Assembly (NCBI GenBank): GCA_963755915.1
Contig: CAVWLP010000002.1
Location: 3,648,001-3,712,000 of the forward strand
From: an uncultured Phycisphaerales bacterium
Lineage (GTDB): Bacteria > Planctomycetota > Phycisphaerae > Tepidisphaerales > Tepidisphaeraceae
Reading direction: 5' to 3'
Length of the DNA stretch: 64,000 nucleotides
In this document: positions 51,152-64,000 of the stretch, one piece after another
Numbering within the stretch: the first letter of the stretch is position 1
Layout: each line of letters begins with the position of its first letter
Program-made: the position numbers and the translations under genes
Notes under the pieces: generated by a model
Databases searched by the model: none
Seen by the model: only the letters and a program-made list of their open reading frames with translations
Told to the model about the DNA's origin: nothing

Positions 51152-51226
51152 GCGCCTGTAGCTCAATTGGCAAGCAGCGCCGCGCTTACATCGCGGAGGT
51201 TGCTGGTTCAAGTCCAGCCTGGCGCA
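51152..51226 (+). tRNA. tRNA-Val(TAC)
   Basis: Anticodon arm CCGCG-CT TAC AT-CGCGG; T loop TTCAAGT; one acceptor mismatch. Confidence 0.85.
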
Positions 51227-51271
51227 TGAAAGGACAAAGGCCGTGAAAACGCCTGGAAAATCAGGCCTTTT

Positions 51272-51343
51272 ACGCTGTTAGCTCAGAGGCAGAGCACCCG
51301 CCCGATAAGCGGGAGGCCGGAGAGTCGAGACCTCCACGGCGTA
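51272..51343 (+). tRNA. tRNA-Ile(GAT), degenerate T arm
   Basis: CCCGC-CC GAT AA-GCGGG; T arm reads GGAGAGTCGAGACCTCC. Confidence 0.7.
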
Positions 51344-51354
51344 CTGAAAATCTC

Positions 51355-51429
51355 GCACTGGTAGCTCAATCGGATCAGAGCTCCGGTCTACGAAACCGGA
51401 GGTTGAAGGTTCGAATCCTTCCCAGTGCA
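51355..51429 (+). tRNA. tRNA-Arg(ACG)
   Basis: CCGGT-CT ACG AA-ACCGG; canonical arms. Confidence 0.95.
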
Positions 51430-51488
51430 CTGGTGTCGTAAGTGATTGTATCTAATTACGATGTATTTGTGGTTGCTGATAAGGTTTC

Positions 51489-51560
51489 GCACTCGTAGCT
51501 CAACGGCGGAGCCACCGGCTCTTAACCGGTGGGTTGCAGGTTCGAATCCTGCCGGGTGCA
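51489..51560 (+). tRNA. tRNA-Lys(CTT)
   Basis: ACCGG-CT CTT AA-CCGGT. Confidence 0.93.
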
Positions 51561-51614
51561 TGAAAGGAGAATGTCAGATGAATCGGTTCAGGAGAAAACG
51601 GTGCAAATAATTCC

Positions 51615-51689
51615 GCACCGGTAGCTCAACGGAATCAGAGCAACCCTCTTCTAAAGGGTCGGCTGGGGGTTCGAATCCCTCCCGGTGCA
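51615..51689 (+). tRNA. tRNA-Arg(TCT)
   Basis: ACCCT-CT TCT AA-AGGGT. Confidence 0.93.
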
Positions 51690-51701
51690 TGCGGACAGTG
51701 C

Positions 51702-51773
51702 GCACCGGTAGCTCAATGGCAGAGCCGCCGCCTTTTAAGCGGAACCATGCAGGTTCGATTCCTGCCCGGTGCA
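51702..51773 (+). tRNA. tRNA-Lys(TTT)
   Basis: CCGC-CT TTT AA-GCGG. Confidence 0.9.
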
Positions 51774-51789
51774 TGAAGAGAAAAGTTTC

Positions 51790-51864
51790 GGTTCAGTAGC
51801 CCAACCGGCAGAGGCGCCTGACTCAGAATCAGACTTAGTGCAGGTTCGAATCCTGCCTGGACCA
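51790..51864 (+). tRNA. tRNA-Leu(CAG), short variable loop
   Basis: CTGA-CT CAG AA-TCAG; only about 6 nt before the T arm. Confidence 0.85.
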
Positions 51865-51873
51865 TAGAAAAAA

Positions 51874-52111
51874 GTTGCGGTAGCTCAATCGGATTGGCTC
51901 TGTCTCATGAATCATCGCGCGGCCAGACGAAGTGGATTTCGTCCTCGGGCAAGGAGCGACGACGAGCAGTATTGAACGGAAATACGGCGAGGAGGAGCGA
52001 CGCCGGCCGAGGACGAAAGACACGAGTCGGGCCCGCGAGGATTCATGAGACAGAGCCGAGAGCGCGGCTCTCCGAAGGCCGAGGTTGAAGGTTCGATCCC
52101 TTCCCGCGACG
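51874..52111 (+). tRNA. tRNA-Arg(CCG) with ~164-nt hairpin inserted in the D loop
   Basis: GTTGCGG-TA-GCTC-AATCGGAT [51895-52058] A-GAGC-G-CGGCT-CT CCG AA-GGCCG-AGGTT-GAAGG TTCGATC CCTTC-CCGCGAC-G. Confidence 0.85.
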
Positions 52112-52126
52112 TGAAAGAAAAACATT

Positions 52127-52198
52127 GGGCCCGTCGTCTAACGGGAAGACTCCTGGCCTGCAACCAGGAAATGAGGGTTCGATTCCCTCCGGCGTCCA
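52127..52198 (+). tRNA. tRNA-Ala(TGC)
   Basis: CCTGG-CC TGC AA-CCAGG; G3:U70 present; one bulged C in the acceptor stem. Confidence 0.85.
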
Positions 52199-52205
52199 TC
52201 GGATT

Positions 52206-52279
52206 GCTTCGGTAGCCCAACCGGAAGAGGCGCGTGATCGAGGTTCACGTCAGTGCAGGTTCGAGTCCTGCCCGGAGCA
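52206..52279 (+). tRNA. tRNA-Leu(GAG), short variable loop
   Basis: CGTGA-TC GAG GT-TCACG; variable loop TCAGT. Confidence 0.85.
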
Positions 52280-52292
52280 CTGAAAGCGTTTC

Positions 52293-52366
52293 GCCGCGGT
52301 AGCCCAATGGCAGAGGCGGTGGTCTCAAGAACCGTTTGTGTGTGGGTTCAAATCCCACCCGCGGCA
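52293..52366 (+). tRNA. tRNA-Leu(CAA), short variable loop
   Basis: GTGGT-CT CAA GA-ACCGT; variable loop about 6 nt. Confidence 0.85.
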
Positions 52367-52426
52367 TGAAAGGAGAATCCGATGAGTAGCGGCTCATCAC
52401 AAAAAAATAGCGAAGACTCCGATTGC

Positions 52427-52510
52427 GGAGGGTTGGCCGAACGGTAAGGCATCCGTCTCGAAAACGGACATGGCGCACGCGCCTTGGGGGTTCGAATCCC
52501 TCACCCTCCT
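52427..52510 (+). tRNA. tRNA-Ser(CGA)
   Basis: TCCGT-CT CGA AA-ACGGA; long variable arm. Confidence 0.9.
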
Positions 52511-52563
52511 TCCGACTCGCGCAGAGCGCTCGGCCTGCCGTGAGCGAGCGCAGCGAGTCGAAC

Positions 52564-52652
52564 GGAGGGTTGGCAGAGTGGCCTAACGCGCCGGGTTGCT
52601 AACTCGGAAGGCTTTGAAAAGGGCCTCGAAGGTTCGAATCCTTCACCCTCCG
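52564..52652 (+). tRNA. tRNA-Ser(GCT)
   Basis: CCGGG-TT GCT AA-CTCGG; long variable arm. Confidence 0.92.
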
Positions 52653-52719
52653 CTGGATTTTGGGCGGTACGAAAATGGTTCGTCCCGCGAAGTGTTCTTT
52701 GACAATCAGGTGGCGTATT

Positions 52720-52792
52720 GCCGTCATAGCTCAGCGGAATGAGCGTCCGGTTGTCAACCGGAAGGCCATGGGTTCAACCCCCATTGACGGCG
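52720..52792 (+). tRNA. tRNA-Asp(GTC)
   Basis: TCCGG-TT GTC AA-CCGGA. Confidence 0.88.
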
Positions 52793-52797
52793 TTTTT

Positions 52798-52868
52798 GTG
52801 GATTCAGCTCCAAGGTAGAGCGGGGGCCTGAAGAGCCCCAGGGCTTGGTTCGATTCCAGGAGTCCACA
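52798..52868 (+). tRNA. tRNA-Phe(GAA)
   Basis: GGGGC-CT GAA GA-GCCCC. Confidence 0.88.
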
Positions 52869-52878
52869 TTGAAGCGAT

Positions 52879-52949
52879 GCGTCGGTAGTTCAGCGGTCGA
52901 ACACCGCTATGCCAATGCGGAGGCCCGGGTTCTATTCCCGGCCGGCGCA
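52879..52949 (+). tRNA. tRNA-Gly(GCC)
   Basis: CCGC-TAT GCC AAT-GCGG; T loop TTCTATT. Confidence 0.8.
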
Positions 52950-52962
52950 CTGAGATTGACGA

Positions 52963-53034
52963 GCAGTGATAACTCAGCCGGGAGAGTGCCGGTCTTCCAA
53001 ACCGGAGACGTGGGTTCGAATCCCGCTCACTGCA
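52963..53034 (+). tRNA. tRNA-Gly(TCC)
   Basis: CCGGT-CT TCC AA-ACCGG. Confidence 0.9.
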
Positions 53035-53049
53035 TAATGCGAGTTTGAT

Positions 53050-53122
53050 GCCGTGGTAGCTCAAAGGGTAGAGCGGTCGTCTCGTAAACGACAGATCGCC
53101 GGTTCGATCCCGGCCCGCGGCT
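53050..53122 (+). tRNA. tRNA-Thr(CGT)
   Basis: GTCGT-CT CGT AA-ACGAC. Confidence 0.93.
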
Positions 53123-53136
53123 CTTAGGGATATTCT

Positions 53137-53210
53137 GGGTGCGTAGCTCAATGGCGGAGCAGGGGCCTCATAAGCCCAAGGTTGTTGGTTCGAATCCAAC
53201 CGTTCACCCA
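53137..53210 (+). tRNA. tRNA-Met or Ile2 (CAT)
   Basis: GGGC-CT CAT AA-GCCC; two extra nt in the acceptor 3' strand. Confidence 0.8.
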
Positions 53211-53227
53211 TTTTTAGAAACTTTTAT

Positions 53228-53300
53228 ACAGGGATAGTTCAATCGGTAGAACGCTCGGCTCTGAACCGGGTTGCTGGAGGTTCGAATCCTTCTCCCTGAA
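53228..53300 (+). tRNA. tRNA-Gln(CTG)
   Basis: CTCGG-CT CTG AA-CCGGG; unpaired 1:72. Confidence 0.88.
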
Positions 53301-53301
53301 C

Positions 53302-53374
53302 TGAGCCGTAGTTCAATCGGTAGCAATGCCGGTCTTTGAATCCGGCGATCGTGGTTCGAATCCACGCGGCTCAA
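53302..53374 (+). tRNA. tRNA-Gln(TTG)
   Basis: CCGG-TCT TTG AAT-CCGG; U1:A72. Confidence 0.85.
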
Positions 53375-53384
53375 ATACCTTAAT

Positions 53385-53458
53385 ACCTTCGTGGTGGAAT
53401 TGGTACCACACTCGGTTGTTACCCGATGAGATTGCAGGTTCGAATCCTGCCGAAGGTG
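53385..53458 (+). tRNA. tRNA-Asn(GTT)
   Basis: TCGG-TT GTT AC-CCGA; G73. Confidence 0.85.
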
Positions 53459-53460
53459 TT

Positions 53461-53570
53461 AGCGGAGCGAGACGCTCCGCTAGAAGGTAGAAAGTAGAGA
53501 GTAGAAAGTAGACTGAAATCCCGTCTTCCCTACTTTGTACTTTCTACTCTCAACTTTCTCGCGCAGCGCC
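53461..53570. repeat. Palindromic intergenic element with AGTAGA-type repeats
   Basis: AGCGGAGCG-AGA-CGCTCCGCT, then purine-rich arm 53482-53511 complementary to pyrimidine arm 53530-53559; right end matches 28270-28289 in reverse complement. Confidence 0.6.
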
Positions 53571-53642
53571 GCTCTCGTCGTCTAATGGTCAGGATAACCG
53601 GCCTTCAACCGGAGAGTGTGGGTTCGATTCCCTCCGGGAGCA
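53571..53642 (+). tRNA. tRNA-Glu(TTC)
   Basis: CCGG-CC TTC AA-CCGG; D arm GTCT AATGGTC AGGAT. Confidence 0.82.
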
Positions 53643-53656
53643 CTGCAAGTTCAATT

Positions 53657-53730
53657 CAGCGTGTGGCGAAGCTTGGCATCGCGCGTGCCTCGGGCGCACG
53701 AGATCGAAGGTTCGAATCCTTCCACGCTGA
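53657..53730 (+). tRNA. tRNA-Pro(CGG)
   Basis: CGTGC-CT CGG GC-GCACG; C1:G72, A73. Confidence 0.93.
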
Positions 53731-53740
53731 CTGTTTTAGC

Positions 53741-53825
53741 GCGTAGGTCGCATAACTGGCATTGCAGCGGGCTGTAACCCCGCCGACCCAACGGGTTTTT
53801 GGGGGTTCAAATCCCTCCCTACGCA
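53741..53825 (+). tRNA. tRNA-Tyr(GTA)
   Basis: GCGGG-CT GTA AC-CCCGC; long variable arm. Confidence 0.92.
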
Positions 53826-53846
53826 TTGCGGCCAGAGGCCGCGAAC

Positions 53847-53919
53847 GCGCCGGCTGTTCCAGCGGTGGAACGCCCGCCTCCAAATCGGGAAACGGCAGGT
53901 TCGATCCCTGCCCGGCGCT
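53847..53919 (+). tRNA. tRNA-Trp(CCA)
   Basis: CCCG-CCT CCA AAT-CGGG; atypical positions 8-9 and discriminator. Confidence 0.78.
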
Positions 53920-53929
53920 GAAACTTTTT

Positions 53930-54001
53930 GAGGATGTGGCCGAATGGCAAGGCGCGGGTCTGCAAAGCCTGCTGATGCTGGTTCGAATCCAGTCATCCTC
54001 T
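53930..54001 (+). tRNA. tRNA-Cys(GCA)
   Basis: CGGGT-CT GCA AA-GCCTG; U73. Confidence 0.9.
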
Positions 54002-54003
54002 TT

Positions 54004-54078
54004 GTGGCCGTAGCTCAACTGGATCAGAGCACCGGGATGTGGCCCCGGTCGTTGTGAGTTCAAATCTCACCGGTCACC
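54004..54078 (+). tRNA. tRNA-His(GTG), no encoded G-1
   Basis: CCGGG-AT GTG GC-CCCGG; C73; T at position -1. Confidence 0.9.
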
Positions 54079-54124
54079 CTGAAAAAATACGCCCCCTGTT
54101 GTCGGTTTGTGAAAGGAGTTTGAG

Positions 54125-54385
54125 ATGACGCGTGCAACGCAATTTGACGTTTTGCCGGCCGATGTCGGCGCCGCAAGCGTTGCGGTGATTCACGTTCGGT
54201 TTGCCGGACAAAGCTTTGACGTTCCGCTGGCGAGCCTGGATGTCGGCGTCCAAAGCGCTGACGGCGCCATCAGGGCAGCCGTGGCCAACTGGCTGAGAGT
54301 GTCGCCGGCCCGTCTGGAGGCCTATGTGATCGACCGCCATGCCAACGGCAATCTGACGATTCGTCCCGAAGCGGTTTTCGGATGA
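54125..54385 (+). CDS. Small Gly-terminated protein, candidate ubiquitin/ThiS-like modifier
   Basis: AAGGAG RBS; 86 aa; strand-strand-helix-strand pattern (VIHVRFAGQSFDVPL...IRAAVANWL...NLTIRPEAVFG-stop); ThiF gene in the same unit. Confidence 0.7.
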   Translation: MTRATQFDVLPADVGAASVAVIHVRFAGQSFDVPLASLDVGVQSADGAIRAAVANWLRVSPARLEAYVIDRHANGNLTIRPEAVFG

Positions 54386-54397
54386 ATCGTGTTGCCG

Positions 54398-54564
54398 TGC
54401 CGCGGCCGGGACGCCGGGATCGCACCCAACGCCAGAAGCTTACAAACAAGGTTGGCACGGCGGGCAACCGCTGTGCCAGGGGTGCGAATCCCCCCAGAGG
54501 TCCTGGTTAGGACCGCAACAGATGCTTTTGTGACTCGTGCGATCGCGGCGTCCCGGCCGCGGCA
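54398..54564 (+). ncRNA. Y-RNA-like ncRNA unit 1
   Basis: Long closing stem TGCCGCGGCCGGGACGCCG..GATCGCAC / GTGCGATC..CGGCGTCCCGGCCGCGGCA; CCAACG-N4-AAGC-TTACAAAC ... GCTT-TTGTGACTC; T-arm-like GGGG TGCGAAT CCCC. Confidence 0.75.
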
Positions 54565-54589
54565 AAATTCAGGAGTTTTATGGATCGAG

Positions 54590-54772
54590 ATCGGCCGCCT
54601 GCGAATTGCGGCCCGCGCCCAACGATTGGAGCATACAAACTGGTTGCTTGTGGGGATCATTTTCCCGCAATGAAGGTTCGAATCCTTCCACCCCGTCTTT
54701 GAAGAACTGTGCGGGGTGCGAAAATATTTGCTCCCGCAACTTGCGCGAACCGCAATTCGCCGGCGATCCGAT
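54590..54772 (+). ncRNA. Y-RNA-like ncRNA unit 2
   Basis: Stem GCGAATTGCGG / CCGCAATTCGC; CCAACG-N4-GAGC-ATACAAAC ... GCTC-CCGCAACTT; T arm GAAGG TTCGAAT CCTTC followed by closed acceptor-like stem CACCCCG/CGGGGTG. Confidence 0.78.
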
Positions 54773-54805
54773 TGGAACTTAATCACGGAGACGCCGCCAA
54801 AACAT

Positions 54806-54969
54806 TCTGCAGTACACGCCGTACCCAACGGCGCGAGCATACAAACGTTGCTAACGTAGAGGTTACGGGTTCGAGTCCCGTCAGGCCAGCTTTCAATCAT
54901 TCGGGCCTGTAGCTCAATGGTAGAGCGCTAAAAAGTGGCTCATGCGACTTGTATGGCGTGTTCTGCGGA
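54806..54969 (+). ncRNA. Y-RNA-like (YrlA-architecture) ncRNA unit 3
   Basis: Closing stem and shared motif; T arm ACGGG TTCGAGT CCCGT, closed acceptor CAGGCC..GGCCTG, TA, D arm GCTC AATGGTA GAGC (T arm before D arm). Confidence 0.85.
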
Positions 54970-54987
54970 TTTTATGAAAGGAAGAGA

Positions 54988-55163
54988 TCGATTCGCCGAT
55001 GCCGCGCCTGCACCCAACGGCAGGAGCATACAAACTTGCGGGTTCGAATCCCGCCATTTGCGAATGCAAATGACGTCCATTTGGAAGGACACCTGACTCA
55101 CAATCAGGCGTTTAACAACGCACAGCTCGTGTGACTTGTGCGGGCGCGGCGCCGGTGAATCGA
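54988..55163 (+). ncRNA. Y-RNA-like ncRNA unit 4 containing a complete permuted cloverleaf (anticodon-like CAC)
   Basis: Closing stem and shared motif; T arm GCGGG TTCGAAT CCCGC, acceptor CATTTGC-GAAT-GCAAATG, D arm GTCC ATTTGGAA GGAC, anticodon arm CCTGA-CT CAC AA-TCAGG. Confidence 0.85.
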
Positions 55164-55185
55164 CTTGACGGAAAGGAGCAGCACC

Positions 55186-56835
55186 ATGACGAACATGAAC
55201 GCACACCTCACGACCGAACAGGACGCACGTCTCCGGCTGCTGAACACGCTGCTGACGACGCCGCACCGCAAGCTCCAGAAAGTTCACCCGGTGCATGAAG
55301 AAATCGCGGCCAACGATCCGCGCTTCTACGTGCGCCTCGCTTCCTGGTACTTCGACCACGGCGACGTTCGCGACCACAAGGAAATGTTCGTGGTTTCGCT
55401 GGTTTTGAGCGATTTCGAAGGACACCGCGACGTTGGATTGGCCCTGCTGCGCCAGCTCCCGCCGTACGAAGTGGGGCGGGTGCTGGACTTCATCAACGGC
55501 CGCAAGACAACCCGTAAGGTGATCGTGCGCACTCGCAAGGCGCGCAAGGACCGCGCGGCTGCGAAGGCTCAGCCGGGCCTGATCAATCGAATCGCGCGCC
55601 TGGTGACGGGAAACGCCGCGGAATCGGCGGAAGCCGGGCCGACCGAAGCAGCGCCGGCGCCGGAAATCAAGCTGGTGACGGAAACCTTCGGGCTCTTCCG
55701 CAACCCGCCGCGCTCGCTACGGACGGAAATCGTCCGCTACCTGCGTGAACGCGAAGCCGACGGCGAATGGTTCGACAGCACCGTGCTCGTTGCCCGCAAG
55801 GCGATCAAGCGGCTGTACGCGCTGAACCACGTGAAGCCGGGTGATCGCGCCCAGCGGATCCTCTTCGACGAAGATCCGCCGGCCGGCAGCCGGATTTACG
55901 CTTTGCGCAAGCTCGCCGCCGCAACCACGCCGGCGGAGCAGGCGCAGGCGATTATCGACAACGCGATTCCGTATCGAGTCGCCCAGTCGGTCGTCAAGCA
56001 GATGACGCCGACGATTCTGCTGGCCCTGATCGAGCGGATGAGCCCTCAGGAACTGATTAACAACGTCGCCTCGCTGACGAAGCGCGGCGCGATGGACAAT
56101 CCGGACCTGAAGGCGTTGATCGACCAGAAGCTTGAGCAGGCCCAAACGGCCCAGCGGGTTAGCGGGCTCAAGGCGCAGAAGGCGATTGAGTCGGCCGGCG
56201 CAACGGTGTCGCCGGACGTGAAGGCGAAGCTCGAAAGCGTCGCCGACGCGCAGATCAAGGCTAAGGGCCGGATCGACCGTCCCACGGCGCTGCTCATCGA
56301 CAAGTCGGGCTCGATGTCGCTGGCGATTGAACTCGGCAAGCGCATCGGCGCCCTGATTTCCGCGATCTGCCGCGCGGAGCTCTTCGTCTACGCGTTCGAC
56401 ACGATGGCTTACCCCATCGAGCGCGGCGGCGACGACCTTGCTTCGTGGGAAAAGGCGCTGGTTGGCATCAAGGCCGGCGGCGGAACGAGCTGCGGAGTCG
56501 CCGTCGAGGCGATGCGCATCCGCAAGCAGTACGTCGAGCAGATCATTCTCGTCACCGACGAGGGTGAAAACACGGCGCCGCTGTTTGTGCCCACGCTGCA
56601 GAAGTACCGGGAAACGGTCAAGGCCGTTCCCAACATCTGCATCGTTCGCGTCCCGCGCAGCGTGACGACGGTTGAGTCGAATTGCCGCGCGGCTGGTTTG
56701 ATGGTCGATGTGTTCCAGTTCGCCGGCGACTACTACTCGCTGCCGAACCTGGCGCCGCTCCTGAGCAAGCCGAGCAAGCTCGAATTGCTCATGGAGATCC
56801 TGGAGTACCCTCTGCCGAAGCGGAGGTCGGCGTAA
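55186..56835 (+). CDS. Ro60/TROVE-like helical protein with C-terminal vWA domain
   Basis: AAAGGAG RBS; basic helical N-terminal region (DPRFYVRLASWY, MSPQELINNVASL); MIDAS residues LLIDKSGSM, GGTS, ILVTDEGEN; adjacent to Y-like RNAs. Confidence 0.75.
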   Translation: MTNMNAHLTTEQDARLRLLNTLLTTPHRKLQKVHPVHEEIAANDPRFYVRLASWYFDHGDVRDHKEMFVVSLVLSDFEGHRDVGLALLRQLPPYEVGRVLDFINGRKTTRKVIVRTRKARKDRAAAKAQPGLINRIARLVTGNAAESAEAGPTEAAPAPEIKLVTETFGLFRNPPRSLRTEIVRYLREREADGEWFDSTVLVARKAIKRLYALNHVKPGDRAQRILFDEDPPAGSRIYALRKLAAATTPAEQAQAIIDNAIPYRVAQSVVKQMTPTILLALIERMSPQELINNVASLTKRGAMDNPDLKALIDQKLEQAQTAQRVSGLKAQKAIESAGATVSPDVKAKLESVADAQIKAKGRIDRPTALLIDKSGSMSLAIELGKRIGALISAICRAELFVYAFDTMAYPIERGGDDLASWEKALVGIKAGGGTSCGVAVEAMRIRKQYVEQIILVTDEGENTAPLFVPTLQKYRETVKAVPNICIVRVPRSVTTVESNCRAAGLMVDVFQFAGDYYSLPNLAPLLSKPSKLELLMEILEYPLPKRRSA

Positions 56836-56838
56836 TTC

Positions 56839-56871
56839 AGCGGCGCGGCTCAAAAAGCCCGCGCCGCTTTT
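56839..56871 (+). terminator. Intrinsic-terminator-like hairpin
   Basis: AGCGGCGCGGCT-CAAAA-AGCCCGCGCCGCT-TTT right after the vWA stop; U tract is short. Confidence 0.5.
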
Positions 56872-56884
56872 GGAAGGTCGTTAT

Positions 56885-57586
56885 ATGCGCTCGGACATGG
56901 CCAAAGTAATCGTGGAACGGCCCCGCAGAGGCGGCGGAATCCGTTATCCGCGCAGTCACCCGGATTCCCATCGATTGGACATCGAGGATTTCCGCAGTCG
57001 CCAGGGCATGCGCCGGCCGTGGCTCAGTTCCCACGCAAAGGGATTGAATGAAAACCTCGCGCCCCTGGAGCGCTATCTGCGAACCCACGTGGGCCGCCCG
57101 TGGGATGACATTTACAGCGAGATTTGCGAGCACATGAATCGCAATTCCGCCGTTCAACTGCACATCTGGCAGCACCTAATGCAATTTGTCTGCAGAGATG
57201 TTTATGTCACGCTCGGTTTGGTCAAGCCGTCATGGTGGCACGGCGCGGGAAGGTTTTATGTCGACCCGAGCACGGGAATATTGCGCGAAAATCTGTTCAG
57301 GTGGCGCTACCGGCGGCCCGAACCGAAGCCCGATCCAAACCGCGTTCCAGCGAGCGAGGATATCGAATATCGGCGAATTGAGGGCATCTGGTATGAATTG
57401 CGCTTGGCGCCGATTCCGAAGTTTCGCATCGGCTACGACTTCGCGATCAGAAAACATCTGACCGAAATCAGCGACGATCTCCTTCACAAGTTTTACGACC
57501 GACAGGTTTACGCCGCGAGGAAACGCCAATTGAACAAGAAAGAAATCAGAAAACTTGGACTGACAACGGCAGGGACAAAATCTTGA
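56885..57586 (+). CDS. Arg/aromatic-rich hypothetical protein
   Basis: MRSDMAKVIVERPR...LNENLAPLERYL..VGRPWDDIYSEIC...FYVDPSTGIL...KRQLNKKE; overlaps the next start codon. Confidence 0.7.
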   Translation: MRSDMAKVIVERPRRGGGIRYPRSHPDSHRLDIEDFRSRQGMRRPWLSSHAKGLNENLAPLERYLRTHVGRPWDDIYSEICEHMNRNSAVQLHIWQHLMQFVCRDVYVTLGLVKPSWWHGAGRFYVDPSTGILRENLFRWRYRRPEPKPDPNRVPASEDIEYRRIEGIWYELRLAPIPKFRIGYDFAIRKHLTEISDDLLHKFYDRQVYAARKRQLNKKEIRKLGLTTAGTKS

Positions 57587-58440
57587 AAAAGGAACTTCTT
57601 CAAACTCTTAAGAATCTTGCTGCCGCGGAGAATGCGTTCGTCGACATCGAATTCCTCGCCCCGGTCCTGCGCGGCTCCGGCGTCGCGGTAAAAATTGCCG
57701 GGGTCCGCTGCAACGTCGCGATTGATCCGCCCGATTTCCAGGGCTGGGGTGTCTTTCGCGCCGATTCCCTGACGAGCGCCGCTTTGCTTCGCGAAGCGAC
57801 CCCCACGCAGCGGCGAAACTATCTGCGTCTGCTTCCCTCGGTCCGCCTAATCGTTTGTGGCGGAAAGGCGAGCACTGCGATGGCCCTTCCCGCCAATCCC
57901 TCGGACACGCGCTTCTATTTTGCGGGACCGGTCTTTGTGCAGCTTTGCCCGAAAATCGATTTGTTCACGACGATAATGTGCCGGTTCTATGCCGCTCAAT
58001 TTTGGTTCGACAGTCTGGATTCGCGCACTGATCCCGCCGCCGCAGCGTACTTGCGGCGTGAACTGACGAACATGACCGAACCGAAAAATCTTTCCCGTAG
58101 GGGCGTAACCCGTGGCGAGCGATTCGCCTACGCCTTTGAATTTTCGCGCCGCGCCAGCGCAATTCTCGCCGACCGGCGGCATCGCGCCGACGTCCGCCTA
58201 AAGCAGGCGCTGGCCCATGCCGGCGCCATCCTGACCGATTTTTCCGAAGACCACGATTTGTTTCGCGTCGCTTATTTGGTCGACGGCCGCCGTCATCTGA
58301 GCAACGTGCGCAAGGACGATCTCACAGTTCAATCCGCCGGCATTTGCCTCGCCGGCCAGGACCGGAATTTCGATCTCGCGAGCCTGGTAGGAGTCCTTCG
58401 CGAGGGCGATTCCATGTCCAGATTTCCCCGCCGGCGGTAA
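57583..58440 (+). CDS. Hypothetical protein with C-terminal GICL motif (candidate divergent E2/UBC-like)
   Basis: DLTVQSAGICLAGQDRNFDLASLVGVLRE immediately upstream of the ThiF gene. Confidence 0.6.
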   Translation: MKKELLQTLKNLAAAENAFVDIEFLAPVLRGSGVAVKIAGVRCNVAIDPPDFQGWGVFRADSLTSAALLREATPTQRRNYLRLLPSVRLIVCGGKASTAMALPANPSDTRFYFAGPVFVQLCPKIDLFTTIMCRFYAAQFWFDSLDSRTDPAAAAYLRRELTNMTEPKNLSRRGVTRGERFAYAFEFSRRASAILADRRHRADVRLKQALAHAGAILTDFSEDHDLFRVAYLVDGRRHLSNVRKDDLTVQSAGICLAGQDRNFDLASLVGVLREGDSMSRFPRRR

Positions 58441-58460
58441 TCTGATTTCGAGGACGCTAC

Positions 58461-59114
58461 ATGCCCGGAGCCTTCCATCACGAATCCCTCTACCGCGGCC
58501 CCGAAGCGCTTGCGCGGCTGGCGTCGCTGCGCATCACCCTCTGCGGCGCCGGCGCGATCGGTTCGAACCTGGCCGACAACCTCGTCCGCCAGGGCGCGGC
58601 GAAACTGCGCGTCATCGACGACGACCGCGTCGAGCAGCACAACATTTCCACGCAAATCTACGGCGAATCAGATGTAGGCGTCTGGAAGGTCGAAGCCTTG
58701 CGGAACCATCTTTTCCGCGCCTGCGGCATCGAAATTGACGCCGTGCGGAAAAGACTCACCGCGCAAAACGCCGGATCGCTTCTGAAAGATGCCGATCTGG
58801 TTATCGATGCGCTCGACAATTCGCAGTCGCGCCAGATCGTGCAAGACCATGCGCGAGCAACCAATGTCCCGTGCATTCACATCGGCCTGTACGAAGACTA
58901 CTGCGAATCGATTTGGGACGAGCAATACCGCGTGCCCGCGGATCGTGCGAATCAGCATGACGTTTGCGATTATCCGCTGGCCCGGAACCTGGTACTGCTC
59001 GCTGTCGCGATTGCGTCAGAAACGATCGTGAAATGGCCCGCCACCGGCGAGCGTGCGAATCTCTCCGCGACGCTCAAAGATTTTGCGGTCAGGCCCCTGG
59101 TGCAGCGGGTTTGA
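58461..59114 (+). CDS. ThiF/MoeB/E1-family adenylyltransferase
   Basis: LCGAGAIGS, IDDDRVEQHNISTQ, KVEAL, VIDALDN; no CxxC zinc pairs; lone Cys in DVCDYP. Confidence 0.9.
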   Translation: MPGAFHHESLYRGPEALARLASLRITLCGAGAIGSNLADNLVRQGAAKLRVIDDDRVEQHNISTQIYGESDVGVWKVEALRNHLFRACGIEIDAVRKRLTAQNAGSLLKDADLVIDALDNSQSRQIVQDHARATNVPCIHIGLYEDYCESIWDEQYRVPADRANQHDVCDYPLARNLVLLAVAIASETIVKWPATGERANLSATLKDFAVRPLVQRV

Positions 59115-59123
59115 AACTGCTGA

Positions 59124-61207
59124 TCACTTCCCCGCCAATTGCGCAACCGCAGCGATAAGCTGCTGCGGCTCCACAGGCTTCGTGAGGTGCATCTGAAATC
59201 CCGCAGTGAGCGCGAATCCGGTCCTCCTCGCGCATAAGCAGTCAGCGCGATCGCCGGCGTATTCCCTCCGCTGGCGGCCGGAAGCTGCCGAAGCATCTGG
59301 ATCATCTGAAATCCATCTTCTCCCGGCATTGCGATATCGCTCACCAGCACGTGCGGCATGCATTTCCCCATGCATTCCATCGCTTCGCGAACCGAACTCG
59401 CCGCCGTGACCATCGCCTCCGCACGCGACAGAATTTCGCGAACCAGCTCGAGCGCATCGGGCTCATCATCGATAACGAGAACCTTCTTTCCCGATAGCTT
59501 GATGCCATTGACGGTATGAGGGGCATTGTTTTTCGGTGCGACGGCCGGCACGGAAGGCGCTTTGTGAAATGGCGACGTCGGCAGTGTCACGGTAAATGTG
59601 GCCCCACTTCCCAGCCCCGAACTGTGCGCCGCCACGCTTCCGCCATGCAGCTCGACGATATGCCGCACGATCGTCAGCCCGATGCCAAGCCCCCCGTGCG
59701 ATCGGGTCATCGTATTGTCCGCCTGGCGAAACCGGTCGAACACAAACGGCAGAAACGCGCCGTCAATTCCCTGCCCCGTATCCGCGATCTGAATCTGCGC
59801 GTGATGATTCACGGACTCGAGGCTCACGTGCACCTGCCCCTGCGGCGGCGTAAACTTCACCGCGTTCGCCAGCAGGTTCCACACCACCTGCTGGAGCCGG
59901 TCAGGGTCGCCGGAAATCTTCGCGCTTGCGCCCAATTCCACTTCCAGTTGGATATTCTTCGCGTCGGCCGCGGGCCGGATCGCGTCAACCGCCGACTGAA
60001 CGATCAGCTCCAGCGGCACATCCGCCATTTGCAGCCGCATCTTCCCCGAGCTGACGCGCGAAACGTCCAGCAAATCCTCAATCAATTTCGTCTGCGCCTT
60101 CACGTTCCGCTCGATGACGTCCAGGCCATGCGCGGCGTCATCAGGCAGTTTCTCGGTGCGCAAAATCTGAGTCCACCCGACGATCGCATTCAGCGGCGTC
60201 CGCAATTCGTGCGACAACGTCGCCAGAAATTCGTCCTTAATGCGATTGGCTTCGCGCTCTTGCGCAAAAATAATGTTCTGAATCGCGATCGAGGTGATCT
60301 GGGCAAGCTGCACAAGGATCGCCTCATCGTCGCTGGAAAACGAGTCCTTGCCGCGGTCCATCAGCAGAATCAGGCCGAGATTCTTGCCGTCGCGACCGCT
60401 CAGCGGCGCCGCCAGCAGCCCGCCCCGCGTCGTCGGCAGCTCCAGCTTGCGAATTATCTCCCAGTCCGGATGCTCGCGCAGCTCCGATTCGCTGAGCCGT
60501 ATCGCGATCGGCGATTGTGCGATGATCGTACCGGCCACGGGCTCAAGCTTGATCGGCCGGTTGCGCCACTGCGAGAAACGGTCCGAAAATGCCGCCGCCG
60601 CGCGGATCGGAGACGGCCGGTGCGTTTGCAATGGATCGGCCAGTATCAGCGAGCCGCAGAAATGGCTCCCGATCAGTTCCCGCGCATAGTCGGTAACCGC
60701 CCGGATCATCTGCTCCACCGACGGTGCGCTGTTAATGGCGATCGACGCGGTCGAGAGCATCTGAAGCTGCCCCGCTCGCCGGCGCAATGCTTCGCTCTGC
60801 CGCCGGGTTTGCGCCGTCATCTGGTAAAGCGAAACGAAAACCCCCACCTTGCTTCGCAAAACTTCCGGCGCAAACGGCGCGGTGAGGTAGTCGACCGCGC
60901 CGAGGCTGTATCCCTTGGCCACCAGCGGGTCATCCCCGAACGCCGTGATAAAGATGATCGGAATGTGCTGCGAGCTTGGGCGTTGCCGAATCAGCTCCGC
61001 GGTTTCAAACCCATCCATCCCCGGCATGTTCACGTCGAGAAGGATGACCGCAAAGTCTTCGTTGAGCAGGCATCGCAGCGCATCACGCCCGGTGTAGGCC
61101 CGAACGATCCGCTGGTCCAGGTCCTGTAGAACCGCTTCCAGCGCCAGGAGATTCTCAGGCTTGTCATCCACGATCAGGATGTTCGCCGGTGCGCCCGCTT
61201 CAGTCAT
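59124..61207 (-). CDS. Hybrid kinase REC-GAF-HisKA-HATPase-REC (frameshift near 59228)
   Basis: [41 protein letters not shown]-terminal AGFQMHLTKPV in a second frame. Confidence 0.9.
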
Positions 61208-61228
61208 GATCTTCTTCCGTTGTTCTGA

Positions 61229-64000
61229 CTAACGGTGCAGCCACAGCCTCAGCAAACCGAGCAGATGCGGCGTATCGACGGGCTTGGAAATATAATCCGA
61301 AGCCCCGGCTTCGATGCATTTCTCCCGGTCACCTTTCATCGCCTTCGCCGTCAGCGCGATGATCGGCAGGGCCCTGAATTTCGAAAGCTTCCGGATCGCA
61401 CGCATTGTGTCATATCCGTCCATGTCCGGCATCATAATGTCCATCAACACCAAGTCTATGTCGGGCGTGTGCTGCAAAAGCTCAATCGCCGCCCGGCCCG
61501 TCTCCGCCGAAACCACCTGCACCTGGTAGGGCTCAAGGATGCTGGTCATCGCGAAGATGTTTCGCACGTCGTCGTCGACCACAAGAACCTTCTTCCCCGC
61601 CAAAACCGATTCCGCCTGATGGAGATTGTTCAGAACCTGTCGGCGCTGATCGGTCATCTGCGCTACCGGCCTGTGCAGGAAGAGCGACACCGCGTCAAAC
61701 AACCGCTCCGGTGATCGCACGTCGCGCACCGCGCTCGTCTGCGCAAGCCGCTTGATGTGCAATTCCTCTTTACGCGTGTGCGACGCGGCCGAGTAAAGCA
61801 GGATCGGCAGATCCGCAAGTTTCGTCTGCTCGCGAATATCGTCGATCAGATCGAGCGATTTCGCGTCGGGCAGGTTCCATCCAAGCACCATCAGGTCGTA
61901 TTGGCCTTCGTTCAGTTCTTTGAGAGCGGCCGCACCATCGCCGACGGTGGCAACCTGCACATCCGGCCCGCCGATCAGCTCCATCAGTCCAGGGACTTCC
62001 GATTCTTCAGAAATCGCCAGGAGAAGCCGGCGGGTTGTTCCGGCCTGTCCGGCGCGGGAAATGTGCGCGAAAGCGTCGTCGAGCGATTCCTTGTTGCGGA
62101 TCGGCTTGGTCAGCACGCCAATCGCCCCCATGCGGAGCCCGCGGCCGCGTTCCTCATCTGTTGTGATGATGTGCACGGGAATGTGCCGTGTCACCAGATC
62201 ATCCTTCAGGCGGTCGAGCACGCGCCACCCGTCGATGTCAGGAAGGTTGATGTCGAGAGTGATGGCATGGGGCGAGATTTCCCGGGCCAGCGAAATCGCC
62301 GAGGCGCCGCGCGATGTCACCACGGCTTTCATTTGCCGTTCGTGGGCCATTTCAACCAGGATTCGCGCAAAGCTCGGATCGTTCTCGACAACCAGCAGCA
62401 CCTGGTCTCCGAGTCCAATCGATCCCGCGTCGTCGCCAAACTCCTCGACTTGCTGTGCCGGAGCCGATTCCACCGGCGCCAGCACGTCCGATTGCGCCGG
62501 CTCCGGTAGGGCGGTCGGCGCCGTTTCGCGCGGCGGGGCTTCCGCCGTCCGGCGAGCCGGTTTGAGCGGAACATACGCCTGCGGCAGGTAGAGCGTGAAC
62601 GTGCTCCCCACTCCCGGAACGCTGGTGAGCCGAATCTCGCCACCCAGCAACTGCGCCAGCTCGCGGCTGATCGCCAGACCCAATCCGGTCCCGCCGTATT
62701 TTCGGCTCGTGCTTCCGTCCGCCTGCTGGAAGGCCTCGAAAATAATCGCCTGCTTCTCCGCCGGAATACCGATTCCCGTATCCTTGACCGAGAACGTGAC
62801 GACCGACTTGGCCCGGTTGAGACTCTGGTTCTCCGAATTCCAGCCGCTCGTGGCCGTGCCGATTTCGAGCGTAACCGCGCCCTTTTCCGTGAACTTGAAC
62901 GCGTTGGACAGAAGATTCTTGAGAATCTGCTGCAGCCGCTTGGCGTCGGTATGCACGCCGCGCGGCAGCGCCGCGTCCGTTGCCACCCCAAACTCCAGTT
63001 TCTTCGCCTCGGCCACGTGGCGGAACGTGCGGTCGACGAAATCCTGAATGTCACGGAAGTTGGCGTCCCCGATATCGAGGATGACCGTCCCCGATTCGAT
63101 CTTCGAGAGATCCAGAATATCGTTGATCAGCCCCAGCAGATCGTTGCCGGCCGAATGAATCGTCCGCGAGAATTCCACCTGCCGGTCCGTCAGGTTCCCT
63201 TCCGAATTCTTTGATAGCTGGTCGGAAAGGATGAGCAAACTGTTCAGCGGCGTACGCAGCTCGTGCGACATGTTCGCCAAAAATTCGCTCTTATATTTCG
63301 AAGTCAGGGCAAGCTGCTTCGCCTTTTCTTCCAGCGCCTGCCTGGCCTGCTCCACTTCCTTGTTCTTCCGTTCCACTTCCACGTTCTGCTGCGCCAGCAG
63401 CTTGGCCTTGTCTTCCAGCTCGGCGTTGGTCTGCTGCAACTCTTCCTGCTGGCTCTGAAGCTCGCGCCAGAGACTGAGACTGCTTCAGCAGGTCTTCGGT
63501 TCTCATGTTCGCTTCGATGGTATTGAGCACGATGCCGATCGATTCCGTGAGCTGATCGAGGAATGTTTCGTGCGTCGGATTAAACCGGTCGAAGCTGGCA
63601 AGCTCCATGACCGCTTTCACATCCCCTTCGAACACGATCGGCAGCACGATAATGTTCAGCGGCCTTGCTTCACCGAGGCCCGACGTAATCTGGATATAGT
63701 TGCTCGGCACATTGGAGAGCAGAATCTTCTGCTTTTCTAACGCACACTGCCCGACCAGTCCTTCGCCCAGCTTGAATCGGTTGTCGATGTTCTTGCGTTC
63801 TTTGTACGCGTAGCTCGCCAGCAATTTGAGATACGGCTCGTCCGCCTTCTGCGAGCTGTCCATCATGTAAAACACCGCCTGCTGCGCCGAAACCACTGGT
63901 GCAAGCTCCGACAGAATCAGCCTGCCGACGGTCAGCAGATCCTTCTGCCCCTGAAGCATTCGGCTGAACTTGGCGAGATTCGTCTTGAGCCAGTCCTGCT
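61229..64000 (-). CDS. Large hybrid histidine kinase (GAF-HisKA-HATPase-3xREC); 5' end outside window; frameshift near 63465
   Basis: [43 protein letters not shown]; three receiver domains. Confidence 0.9.

Follow-up and report, generated by a model that had tools for sequence, protein, structure and literature searches.

Genes and RNAs of the cassette

The window analyzed here is a stretch of 64,000 nucleotides from contig CAVWLP010000002.1 of an uncultured Phycisphaerales bacterium (assembly GCA_963755915.1, positions 3,648,001 to 3,712,000 of the forward strand). Close-packed genes on its plus strand span 51.1-59.1 kb and contain a cassette that, in its full form, comprises a small protein ending in glycine, Y-RNA-like RNAs, a Ro60-like TROVE/vWA protein, a protein combining OB-like barrels with a cysteine domain, an optional JAB metallopeptidase, and a short ThiF-type E1. 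The Gly-ended protein, a candidate ubiquitin-like modifier, has 86 residues (54125..54385, +) and closes with RPEAVFG-stop, in which the C-terminal Gly is conserved. The OB + Cys protein, a candidate E2-like thioester carrier, has 285 residues (57583..58440, +), and the short ThiF/E1-type adenylating enzyme has 217 residues (58461..59114, +). A tRNA array of 27 genes (51152..54079, +) lies upstream of the small gene, and four tandem Y-RNA-like (tRNA-mimic) units (54400..55100, +) are followed by the gene of a 549-residue Ro60-like TROVE/vWA protein (55186..56835, +).

An earlier note on this DNA had proposed that the small protein, the 285-residue protein and the ThiF protein form a minimal ubiquitin-like cascade. 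The features from which it reasoned are all present. The small frame lies where it was placed and has the ending given above; the ThiF frame carries the adenylation motifs without CxxC pairs, together with a Cys in DVCDYP; and the 285-residue protein closes with AGICLAG...FDLASLVGVL, its C-terminus reading SAGICLAGQDRNFDLASLVGVLREGDSMSRFPRRR. The statement that no thiamine, molybdenum cofactor or sulfur-relay genes are close by also holds, the neighbors being the tRNA array, the TROVE/vWA gene, a DUF1559 pilin-like gene and two-component kinases. All three genes are real and conserved.

Conserved linkage

Related loci were searched with the proteins of the window, and counts are limited to loci with enough flanking sequence. 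The ThiF gene is found in 56 of the 61 loci with at least 2.5 kb downstream; of the 51 loci with at least 6 kb upstream, 43 have the TROVE/vWA gene and 43 the small gene. Where both flanks are available, all four core genes occur together at 36 of 43 genome loci and 11 of 16 viral loci. Obscuribacterales have an altered order (small protein, 285-residue protein, JAB, ThiF, with TROVE a few kb downstream) in which the genes are still linked, showing that the linkage survives rearrangement. Clustering of same-strand open reading frames (ORFs) from 99 loci revealed no further widely shared partner beyond the five, the next-largest cluster being a 262-residue vWA protein at 10 loci. Comparison at the sequence level thereby supports the view that the small, Cys and ThiF genes constitute a conserved functional unit.

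The adenylating enzyme

Pfam ThiF (PF00899; cut-off 28.1 bits) matches the 217-residue protein over profile positions 11-145 of 238, scoring 106.7 bits (E 1.4e-30). In an alignment of 41 relatives, the residues G29xG31A32xG34, D55, N61, Q65, K76, D119, N120 and R124 are invariant (41/41); their roles in binding ATP and Mg are assumed here by analogy with MoeB and ThiF. The protein has cysteines at positions 28, 88, 138, 148 and 169, none of which form a CxxC pair. Cys169, in DVCDYPLARN, is invariant in 41/41 sequences and lies 50 residues after the Asp that is presumed, by the same analogy, to bind Mg. The gene is preceded by GAGGA, 8 nt upstream of the ATG and inside the 20-nt intergenic gap. 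Enzymes of the ThiF/E1 class adenylate a C-terminal glycine in an ATP-dependent reaction, which is often followed by capture on a cysteine.

The best match of the enzyme in the PDB is Uba4 (E 1.2e-12), and the PDB matches include 7TO3 and 7TSQ, which belong to Cap2/Cap3 of the cyclic oligonucleotide-based antiphage signaling system (CBASS). Among the NCBIfam equivalogs TIGR02356 scores highest, with 93.9 bits where its cut-off is 275, and all 25 listed families stay below their cut-offs, including adenyl_thiF (E 8.1e-27). The PADLOC E1-E2 (Cap2) profiles match the protein through their E1 half only. The second-best distinct PDB match (E 2.5e-10) is a 264-residue "THIF-type NAD/FAD binding fold domain-containing protein" (9EGB, 9EGC and 9EGD). 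These entries hold 7-14 chains each, and no paper naming them was found in the literature search.

The small Gly-ended protein

The gene of the 86-residue protein has an AGGAG Shine-Dalgarno sequence 8 nt upstream of its ATG, and 130 homologues were found at E<=1e-3. Of 30 aligned homologues, 29 retain the C-terminal FG, and across related loci the frame closes with [F/Y]G-stop in 49 of 51 cases and is never extended beyond the Gly, so that the terminal residue on which the earlier note's proposal depended is indeed conserved. The last third of the protein, RH(A)NGNLTIRPEAVFG, is almost invariant among the 30 aligned sequences. A free C-terminal Gly is a trait of the β-grasp ubiquitin-like proteins (Ubls) such as ThiS, MoaD and ubiquitin, and the small protein shares it. 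Judged by eye, the sequence would provide a pair of N-terminal strands, then a helix, then a C-terminal pair of strands that run into the tail, an arrangement that would fit a β-grasp fold.

No match to the 86-residue protein was found in Pfam, NCBIfam, PADLOC, PHROGs or the PDB, and its feature neighbors in the ESM Atlas are unnamed clusters. Three genes of the ThiS/MoaD family and other ThiF-family genes are located elsewhere in the same genome. Because these housekeeping copies exist, the set in the cassette is an additional one.

The OB-like and cysteine domains of the 285-residue protein

A word-indexed search yielded 275 homologues of the 285-residue protein, and its C-terminal 116 residues alone yielded 998 cluster representatives at E<=1e-3 and 563 at E<=1e-10. 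Pfam contains no domain that matches this protein or the 86-residue protein. The most conserved stretch is the loop around Cys255 with the helix that follows it, from G253 to E274. Cys255, the cysteine of the GICL(S/A)G motif to which the earlier note had assigned a catalytic role, is invariant in 24/24 sequences and, in the larger alignment, in 41/41. Around it, G253, I254, L256, G258, D260, F263, D264, L265, S267, L268, G270, V271 and R273 are likewise invariant (24/24). A second cysteine, Cys43, is also invariant (24/24).

AlphaFold2 (AF2) modeled the full-length protein with a predicted local distance difference test score (pLDDT) of 87.9, and the C-terminal domain alone, from 41 sequences, with a pLDDT of 91.4. 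The full-length model consists of two OB-like β-barrels (residues ~23-145), a long helix (177-212), a four-strand meander (216-251), Cys255, and a final helix (265-280). The double barrel was absent from the earlier note's description. In VIA-align comparisons the barrels match S17 with Z 7.0, and IF1, eIF1A, PAN/Mpa and exosome cap proteins with Z 5.7-6.4 (IF1 and PAN/Mpa at 5.8-6.1); Foldseek gives Mpa a probability of 0.97 and S17 one of 0.96. In these models the barrel scores allow only the claim of a common (OB) fold. With both AF2 models as queries, Foldseek returned nothing at E<=0.001 and VIA-align returned no Z of 8 or above.

In the model of the C-terminal domain, the order of elements (helix, four-strand antiparallel meander, Cys loop, helix) is that of the UBC core. 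Proteins of the UBC superfold recur among its otherwise weak structural matches. These include, by VIA-align, the RWD domains of Ctf19-Mcm21 (Z 4.7), FANCL (4.7 and 4.5), the UEV domain of Tsg101 (4.3), other RWD proteins, and Ubc9 (Z 4.5 over 76 residues, root-mean-square deviation 3.9). When the top 1000 Foldseek matches were re-scored, FANCL (4.6), VPS37A (4.0), a T. gondii E2 (3.8), Rad6 (3.5) and Ube2T (3.5) were found, with Ube2e2 (3.4) and UBE2S (3.3) the lowest of the E2s. Taken together, E2, UEV and RWD chains align to the domain over 76-88 residues with Z 3.3-4.7, values that unrelated folds also reach. A PDB profile search with the domain had an unrelated protein as its best match (E 0.058). 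Bacterial E2 sequences were also sought for a profile-profile test: Pfam Prok-E2_B matched only 1 of 301 genomes of the phylum, and the PADLOC Cap2 profile met only E1 halves, in 14 of 401 genomes. An E2 fold of the C-terminal domain is thus plausible but unproven in these models.

A conserved C-terminal tail, VRVGxxNxGMxEExYWRVHPPR, is found in many homologues of the Cys protein (e.g., loci L010, L017 and L022) and is missing from the copy in the window. By a rough motif count this tail is present at 29 of 90 loci, and it does not track with the presence of JAB.

An optional JAB gene and the distribution of the cassette

At many loci, 400-550 nt separate the 285-residue and ThiF genes and hold an ORF of ~135 residues. 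Its motif, GFxHTHPxGxxxPSxRDxxTMxAW, has the HxHx7Sx2D pattern of a JAB/MPN+ metal site, and the PADLOC JAB profile matches one example (L010:1798-2232) with E 6.7e-6. A peptidase of this class is the classic companion of prokaryotic Ubl/E1/E2 sets. By tblastn, the JAB gene is present at 54 of the 90 loci that hold both flanking genes, and at 15 of the 18 viral loci with enough downstream sequence. In the window the whole gap from the stop of the Cys-protein gene to the ATG of the ThiF gene is 20 nt (58441-58460) and contains no JAB gene, so the window carries a JAB-less form of the small protein/Cys protein/JAB/E1 set. The earlier note's description of the cascade as minimal, with a modifier that needs no JAB, is accurate for this copy and does not extend to the family. 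Since the small protein never has residues past its Gly, JAB would remove tags rather than mature the modifier.

In a scan of one genome per prokaryotic species, relatives of the 285-residue protein were found in 323 genomes. The best 80 loci come from Planctomycetota, Chloroflexota, Cyanobacteria/Obscuribacterales, Desulfobacterota, Spirochaetota, Abditibacteriota and others. Of 41 genomes closely related to that of the window's organism, 3 have the cassette, a tally that includes the unpublished genome G014; such patchiness is typical of accessory DNA. The cassette also occurs in 19 viral contigs of IMG/VR, several of which are 340-424 kb long. In these 19 contigs, TROVE was found in 18, ThiF in 18, JAB in 15 and a recognizable small protein in 12, and 16 have tRNA genes within 10 kb. 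A 595-kb GenBank record labeled "uncultured phage" (LR756511.1) has all five genes and 11 tRNAs within 19 kb. PHROGs and PADLOC contain no match for the small protein, the TROVE protein, a 238-residue protein or the 285-residue protein.

Five cyanobacterial loci (L055, L062, L068, L071 and L081) have a Cys protein with no match to ThiF, TROVE or the small protein; at L062, L068 and L081 little flanking sequence is available on one side. At L071 the neighbors are unrelated genes, encoding ATP synthase epsilon, a HAD hydrolase, a TPR protein, orange carotenoid protein and a MoxR-like AAA protein. The lone cyanobacterial Cys protein may be an orphan or repurposed form.

The Ro60-like protein, Y-like RNAs and tRNAs

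The 549-residue protein is helical and TROVE-like in its N-terminal part; its C-terminal vWA domain has a metal ion-dependent adhesion site (MIDAS; DKSGS...T...D), whose residues D372, S374, S376, T434 and D458 are invariant in the family. Of 33 family members, 17 match Pfam PF25045 (vWA_Ro60; best E 6.8e-5) and 22 match VWA_2; the window's own copy has no Pfam match at E<=0.01. The Pfam TROVE model matches neither the window copy nor the family members. The sole sequence matches in the PDB are to the Ro60 homologue of Thermus phage phiLo (9KOP/9L5Y), with E 0.006 (single sequence) and 0.008 (family profile), and this weak match is collinear over about 150-250 residues. The name Ro60-like, which we accept for this protein, is based on these matches and on the YrlA-like RNA situated just upstream on the same strand. 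A TROVE ring is weakly shown by the sequence and may be present. The gene is single-copy in the genome. The earlier note had suspected a Ro-like neighbor, and it proves to be a fixed part of the cassette.

The best YrlA-like RNA (54838-54958) is about 230 nt upstream of the TROVE gene and scores 50.7 bits with the Rfam model (E 2.5e-10), under the gathering score of 69; 55036-55090 gives a second match, a partial one. Four Y-like units spaced about 190 nt apart lie in the ~700 nt that follow the 86-residue gene. They have in common the motifs CCCAACG...AGC(A/T)TACAAAC and a T-arm-like GGGTTCGAATCC. When other loci were scanned, partial YrlA matches between the small gene and the TROVE gene were found at 2 of 4.

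The tRNA array was defined by ARAGORN (26 genes) together with one gene found by Rfam at 51272-51343, and its 27 genes cover all 20 amino acids. The genome has 83 tRNAs (26 in the array and 57 dispersed), and no anticodon is unique to the array; it is a spare, fully redundant set. Arrays of 10-27 tRNAs upstream of the small gene, on the same strand, are found at 8 of 83 related loci. The gene order Val-Ile-Arg-Lys...Cys-His is the same in the window's relatives, which are metagenome-assembled genomes of related Phycisphaerae. In Pirellulales, tRNA arrays also precede the cassette, in a different order.

At 10 loci (e.g., L052:4012-4800), a second vWA protein of ~262 residues, with the MIDAS sequence DTTGSM, is encoded between the TROVE and Cys-protein genes.

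Neighboring genes in the window

An accessory protein of 233 residues (56885..57586, +) is encoded directly upstream of the Cys protein, and the stop of its gene overlaps the TTG start of the 285-residue gene (TTGA). It has 586 homologues and no Pfam domain, and it is an occasional insert that adjoins the Cys-protein gene in 3 of 83 loci. Upstream of this gene, at about 56839-56874, a GC-rich hairpin followed by TTTT was seen by eye; it is not in the list of the terminator scan. In the promoter and terminator scan, sites were no commoner than in shuffled sequence.

The island is flanked on one side by the gene of a PAS-rich sigma-54 activator (45630-48581, -) and on the other by two large hybrid histidine kinase/response regulator genes (58970-63439, -). 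The 3' end of the first of these (58970-61207, -) and the end of the ThiF gene share an overlap of about 145 nt.

A candidate conjugation relay and its alternatives

On balance we lean toward a ubiquitin-like relay of adenylation, thioester formation and conjugation that is genetically wired to a Ro60-like/Y-RNA ribonucleoprotein. The adenylation site is intact, Cys169 is invariant, a Gly-ended partner is always linked, the Cys loop of the 285-residue protein is UBC-like, and most relatives have JAB; it is on these grounds that we prefer the relay. In the first step, as family chemistry and the intact ATP/Mg motifs suggest, the short ThiF-type E1 would adenylate the free Gly86 with ATP. The acyl group would then pass to Cys169 of the E1 as a thioester, as indicated by the invariance and position of this residue, and from there to Cys255 of the 285-residue protein, whose C-terminal domain would act as a minimal E2 while the two OB-like barrels might recruit substrate or RNA. 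Finally, the modifier would be joined to a lysine of the target. The likeliest target or platform is the Ro60-like protein, or a protein held on the Ro/Y-RNA particle, because the Ro60-like gene is the sole other universally linked gene. At the loci that have one (54/90), the JAB metallopeptidase would reverse the tag. We infer every one of these transfers, whereas the conservation, the linkage and the assignment of the enzyme to the E1 family are direct results of the comparison.

The earlier note had envisaged the same path, from Ubl to E1 Cys to E2 Cys. The three genes do form a conserved unit in which the Gly and both Cys residues are kept, and the AF2 topology of the GICL domain is UBC-like; the UBC fold itself is suggested, with no Foldseek match at E<=0.001 and weak E2 matches.

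Several observations weigh against the relay. The nearest sequence relatives of the E1 are the sulfur-carrier activators ThiF, MoeB and Uba4. The penultimate residue of the small protein is Phe or Tyr, not Gly; none of its 30 members matches a Ubl family of Pfam at E<=10, a PDB profile search with the family gave a best E of 1.1, and hhalign comparison with 28 ThiS/MoaD sequences from relatives, with the locus of the unpublished genome G014 set aside, gave probabilities of 0.03-0.28%. For the Cys domain, the Pfam E2 families (UQ_con, Prok-E2_A to E) yield no match at E<=10 in a search of the 41 members. There is no His-Pro-Asn (HPN) motif before Cys255, the consensus being DLTVQSAGICLSG, and the gap from strand 4 to Cys255 is only three residues. 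The best Foldseek E for this domain is 0.17, and its top VIA-align match among 48,161 chains is the unrelated Sec3 (Z 5.8); E2 structures reach at most Z 4.7, and unrelated folds do equally well or better. The 285-residue gene occurs without the other three genes at 3 of the 43 fully flanked loci. Finally, the cassette encodes no E3.

The affinity of the E1 to ThiF, MoeB and Uba4 would be accounted for by a sulfur-carrier pathway similar to Urm1-Uba4 or TtuB-TtuC. Once adenylated by the E1, the small protein would be converted to a thiocarboxylate, Cys255 (or Cys43) would form a persulfide, and sulfur would be delivered to tRNA or Y-like RNA held on the OB barrels or on Ro, with JAB in a trimming role like that of Mec+ toward CysO. 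Triads of Ubl, E1 and JAB are also found in sulfur pathways of the CysO/Mec+ type, the context is rich in tRNAs and tRNA-like RNAs, and the 285-residue protein has both OB-like barrels and two invariant cysteines. We nevertheless regard this pathway as unlikely. ORF clustering of the 99 loci revealed no rhodanese, cysteine desulfurase or PP-loop thiolase conserved in the cassette, the NCBIfam ThiF and MoeB matches are all far under their cut-offs, the tail is F/Y-G rather than G-G, and the housekeeping ThiS/MoaD and ThiF-family genes are situated elsewhere in the genome.

Because the fold evidence for an E2 is weak, tagging by the E1 alone, in the manner of archaeal SAMP/UbaA or of TtuB, also has to be weighed. 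Here the 285-residue protein would be an adaptor, a substrate or the RNA-binding partner of Ro, and its cysteines would be structural or redox-active. The fold searches yield no clear E2 match, the N-terminal half resembles OB-type RNA- or protein-binding barrels, and the NCBIfam SAMP-activating E1 is among the matches of the enzyme (E 6.8e-22, below cut-off). However, conservation peaks at the Cys255 loop and helix, from G253 to E274, which is typical of an active site and not of a scaffold, and the Cys-protein gene directly precedes JAB and E1 at almost all loci. For these reasons E2-independent tagging also seems improbable to us.

JAB peptidases are isopeptidases or peptidases, and in aminoacylation a carboxylate is adenylated and then transferred to ribose. 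Transfer of the Gly carboxylate to an RNA hydroxyl (the 3' end of a tRNA-like Y RNA or of a damaged tRNA) or another non-protein acceptor, with the OB/Cys protein as transferase, would suit the tRNA arrays, tRNA-mimic RNAs, Ro60-like protein and OB-like barrels, yet the JAB peptidases at 54 of 90 loci speak against it, and it is given little credence.

The relay preferred here can be extended to a more specific and more doubtful proposal, in which huge phages and bacteria share a tagging machine for the Ro60/Y-RNA particle. A new Ubl, passed by a zinc-less E1 to a new OB-fused, HPN-less E2-like family, would possibly mark Ro, the proteins captured by Ro/Y-RNA or RNA ends, and would so switch RNA quality control or tRNA salvage in phage-host conflict. 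Since tRNA arrays recur and huge phages carry the cassette, one may speculate that it helps to maintain RNA or translation in phage-host conflict or under stress.

Relation to known systems

Bacterial ubiquitin-like conjugation, as in CBASS Cap2/Cap3, Bil and Bub, is an immune mechanism, and each of these systems was first spotted as a cluster of E1, E2 and JAB genes. Prokaryotic Ubl-E2-JAB-E1 operons were reportedly described by Iyer, Burroughs and Aravind in 2006, and Bil is said to be an antiphage operon of the same kind. The cassette resembles these operons, Bil and CBASS Cap2/Cap3 in having a ThiF-type E1, a Gly-ended small partner, a Cys partner adjoining the E1 and, in most members, JAB; it also has no E3, and it is located in phages and accessory islands. 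On the other hand, its Cys domain and small protein match none of the Pfam, NCBIfam and PADLOC models of those operons, its Cys protein has an N-terminal OB-like double barrel, and it is obligatorily linked to the Ro60-like TROVE/vWA protein, Y-like RNAs and, often, tRNA arrays. Unlike CBASS, it includes no CD-NTase or other known effector.

According to the accessible part of a preprint, Bub pathways proceed through oxyester intermediates and have an E1 without a catalytic cysteine and a serine protease (Ye et al., 2024, PMC11601596). As far as that text goes, the cassette is like Bub in being a divergent E1/E2/Ubl set of bacteria whose deconjugating enzyme is unusual and which was discovered through genomic context, and unlike it in that both candidate cysteines are invariant and the family uses JAB where Bub has a serine protease.

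With ThiS-ThiF, MoaD-MoeB and Urm1-Uba4, the cassette shares a Gly-ended small protein and a short E1 with a Cys after the adenylation domain. In contrast to these sulfur-carrier pairs, it has no CxxC zinc site, no rhodanese domain and no linked sulfur-transfer or cofactor genes; the small protein has no profile similarity to ThiS/MoaD, and the E1 misses all curated cut-offs widely.

The pairing of a Ro60-type vWA domain with candidate Y-like, tRNA-mimic RNAs just upstream on the same strand resembles the arrangement of bacterial and phage Ro60 (Rsr)-YrlA systems, as far as the available text of the reports on them describes it (PMC4201824; phiLo, PMC12135203). In the part of Chen et al. (2014, PMC4201824) that was accessible, a YrlA is called when it is on the same strand and within 4 kb. 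The differences from known Ro60 are the very weak similarity (E 0.006-0.008), the lack of a Pfam TROVE match, and the YrlA score below the gathering score. The available text of the two reports mentions no Ubl, E1, JAB partner or tRNA array in Ro60 systems; the known Ro60 partners named in the literature excerpts are PNPase and RtcB-type RNA repair. A full-text literature search, which did not cover supplements, Burroughs and Aravind (2016) or Sim et al. (2020), found no link of TROVE/Ro60 to E1, ThiF, Ubl or JAB. In the accessible portion of an Asgard-virus preprint, a Ro60 gene and three ThiF genes are reported from one virus and are not connected with one another, and the excerpts of a jumbo-phage survey mention TROVE proteins and no Ubl system.

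In its logic the cassette resembles the prokaryotic Ubl/E1/E2/JAB clusters already known; it departs from them in that its candidate Ubl-like and E2-like proteins lie outside the family models scanned, that the latter has an OB-like half, and that the set is linked to a Ro60-like protein, Y-like RNAs and often tRNA arrays.

Implications

The cluster is as widespread as the known immune sets, as relatives occur in the genomes of 323 species, in 19 viral contigs and in the 595-kb phage record. Two of its proteins are outside every described family, and its fixed partner is a Ro60-like protein with Y-like RNAs. The most interesting part, barely touched in the earlier note, is the combination of this protein and its RNAs with spare tRNAs, an optional JAB and presence in huge phages, which suggests a protein-tagging role with a link to RNA quality control. 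Should the sulfur-carrier alternative be true, it would provide a new route of RNA thiolation. If the relay is true, the cassette would offer a tractable bacterial and phage model of protein tagging coupled to Ro/Y-RNA quality control, with hints at what protects or regulates the tRNA islands of very large phages. If, moreover, the Ro60/Y-RNA particle is what is tagged, this would be the first link between ubiquitin-like modification and a Ro ribonucleoprotein outside eukaryotes, and would give phage tRNA islands a new function.

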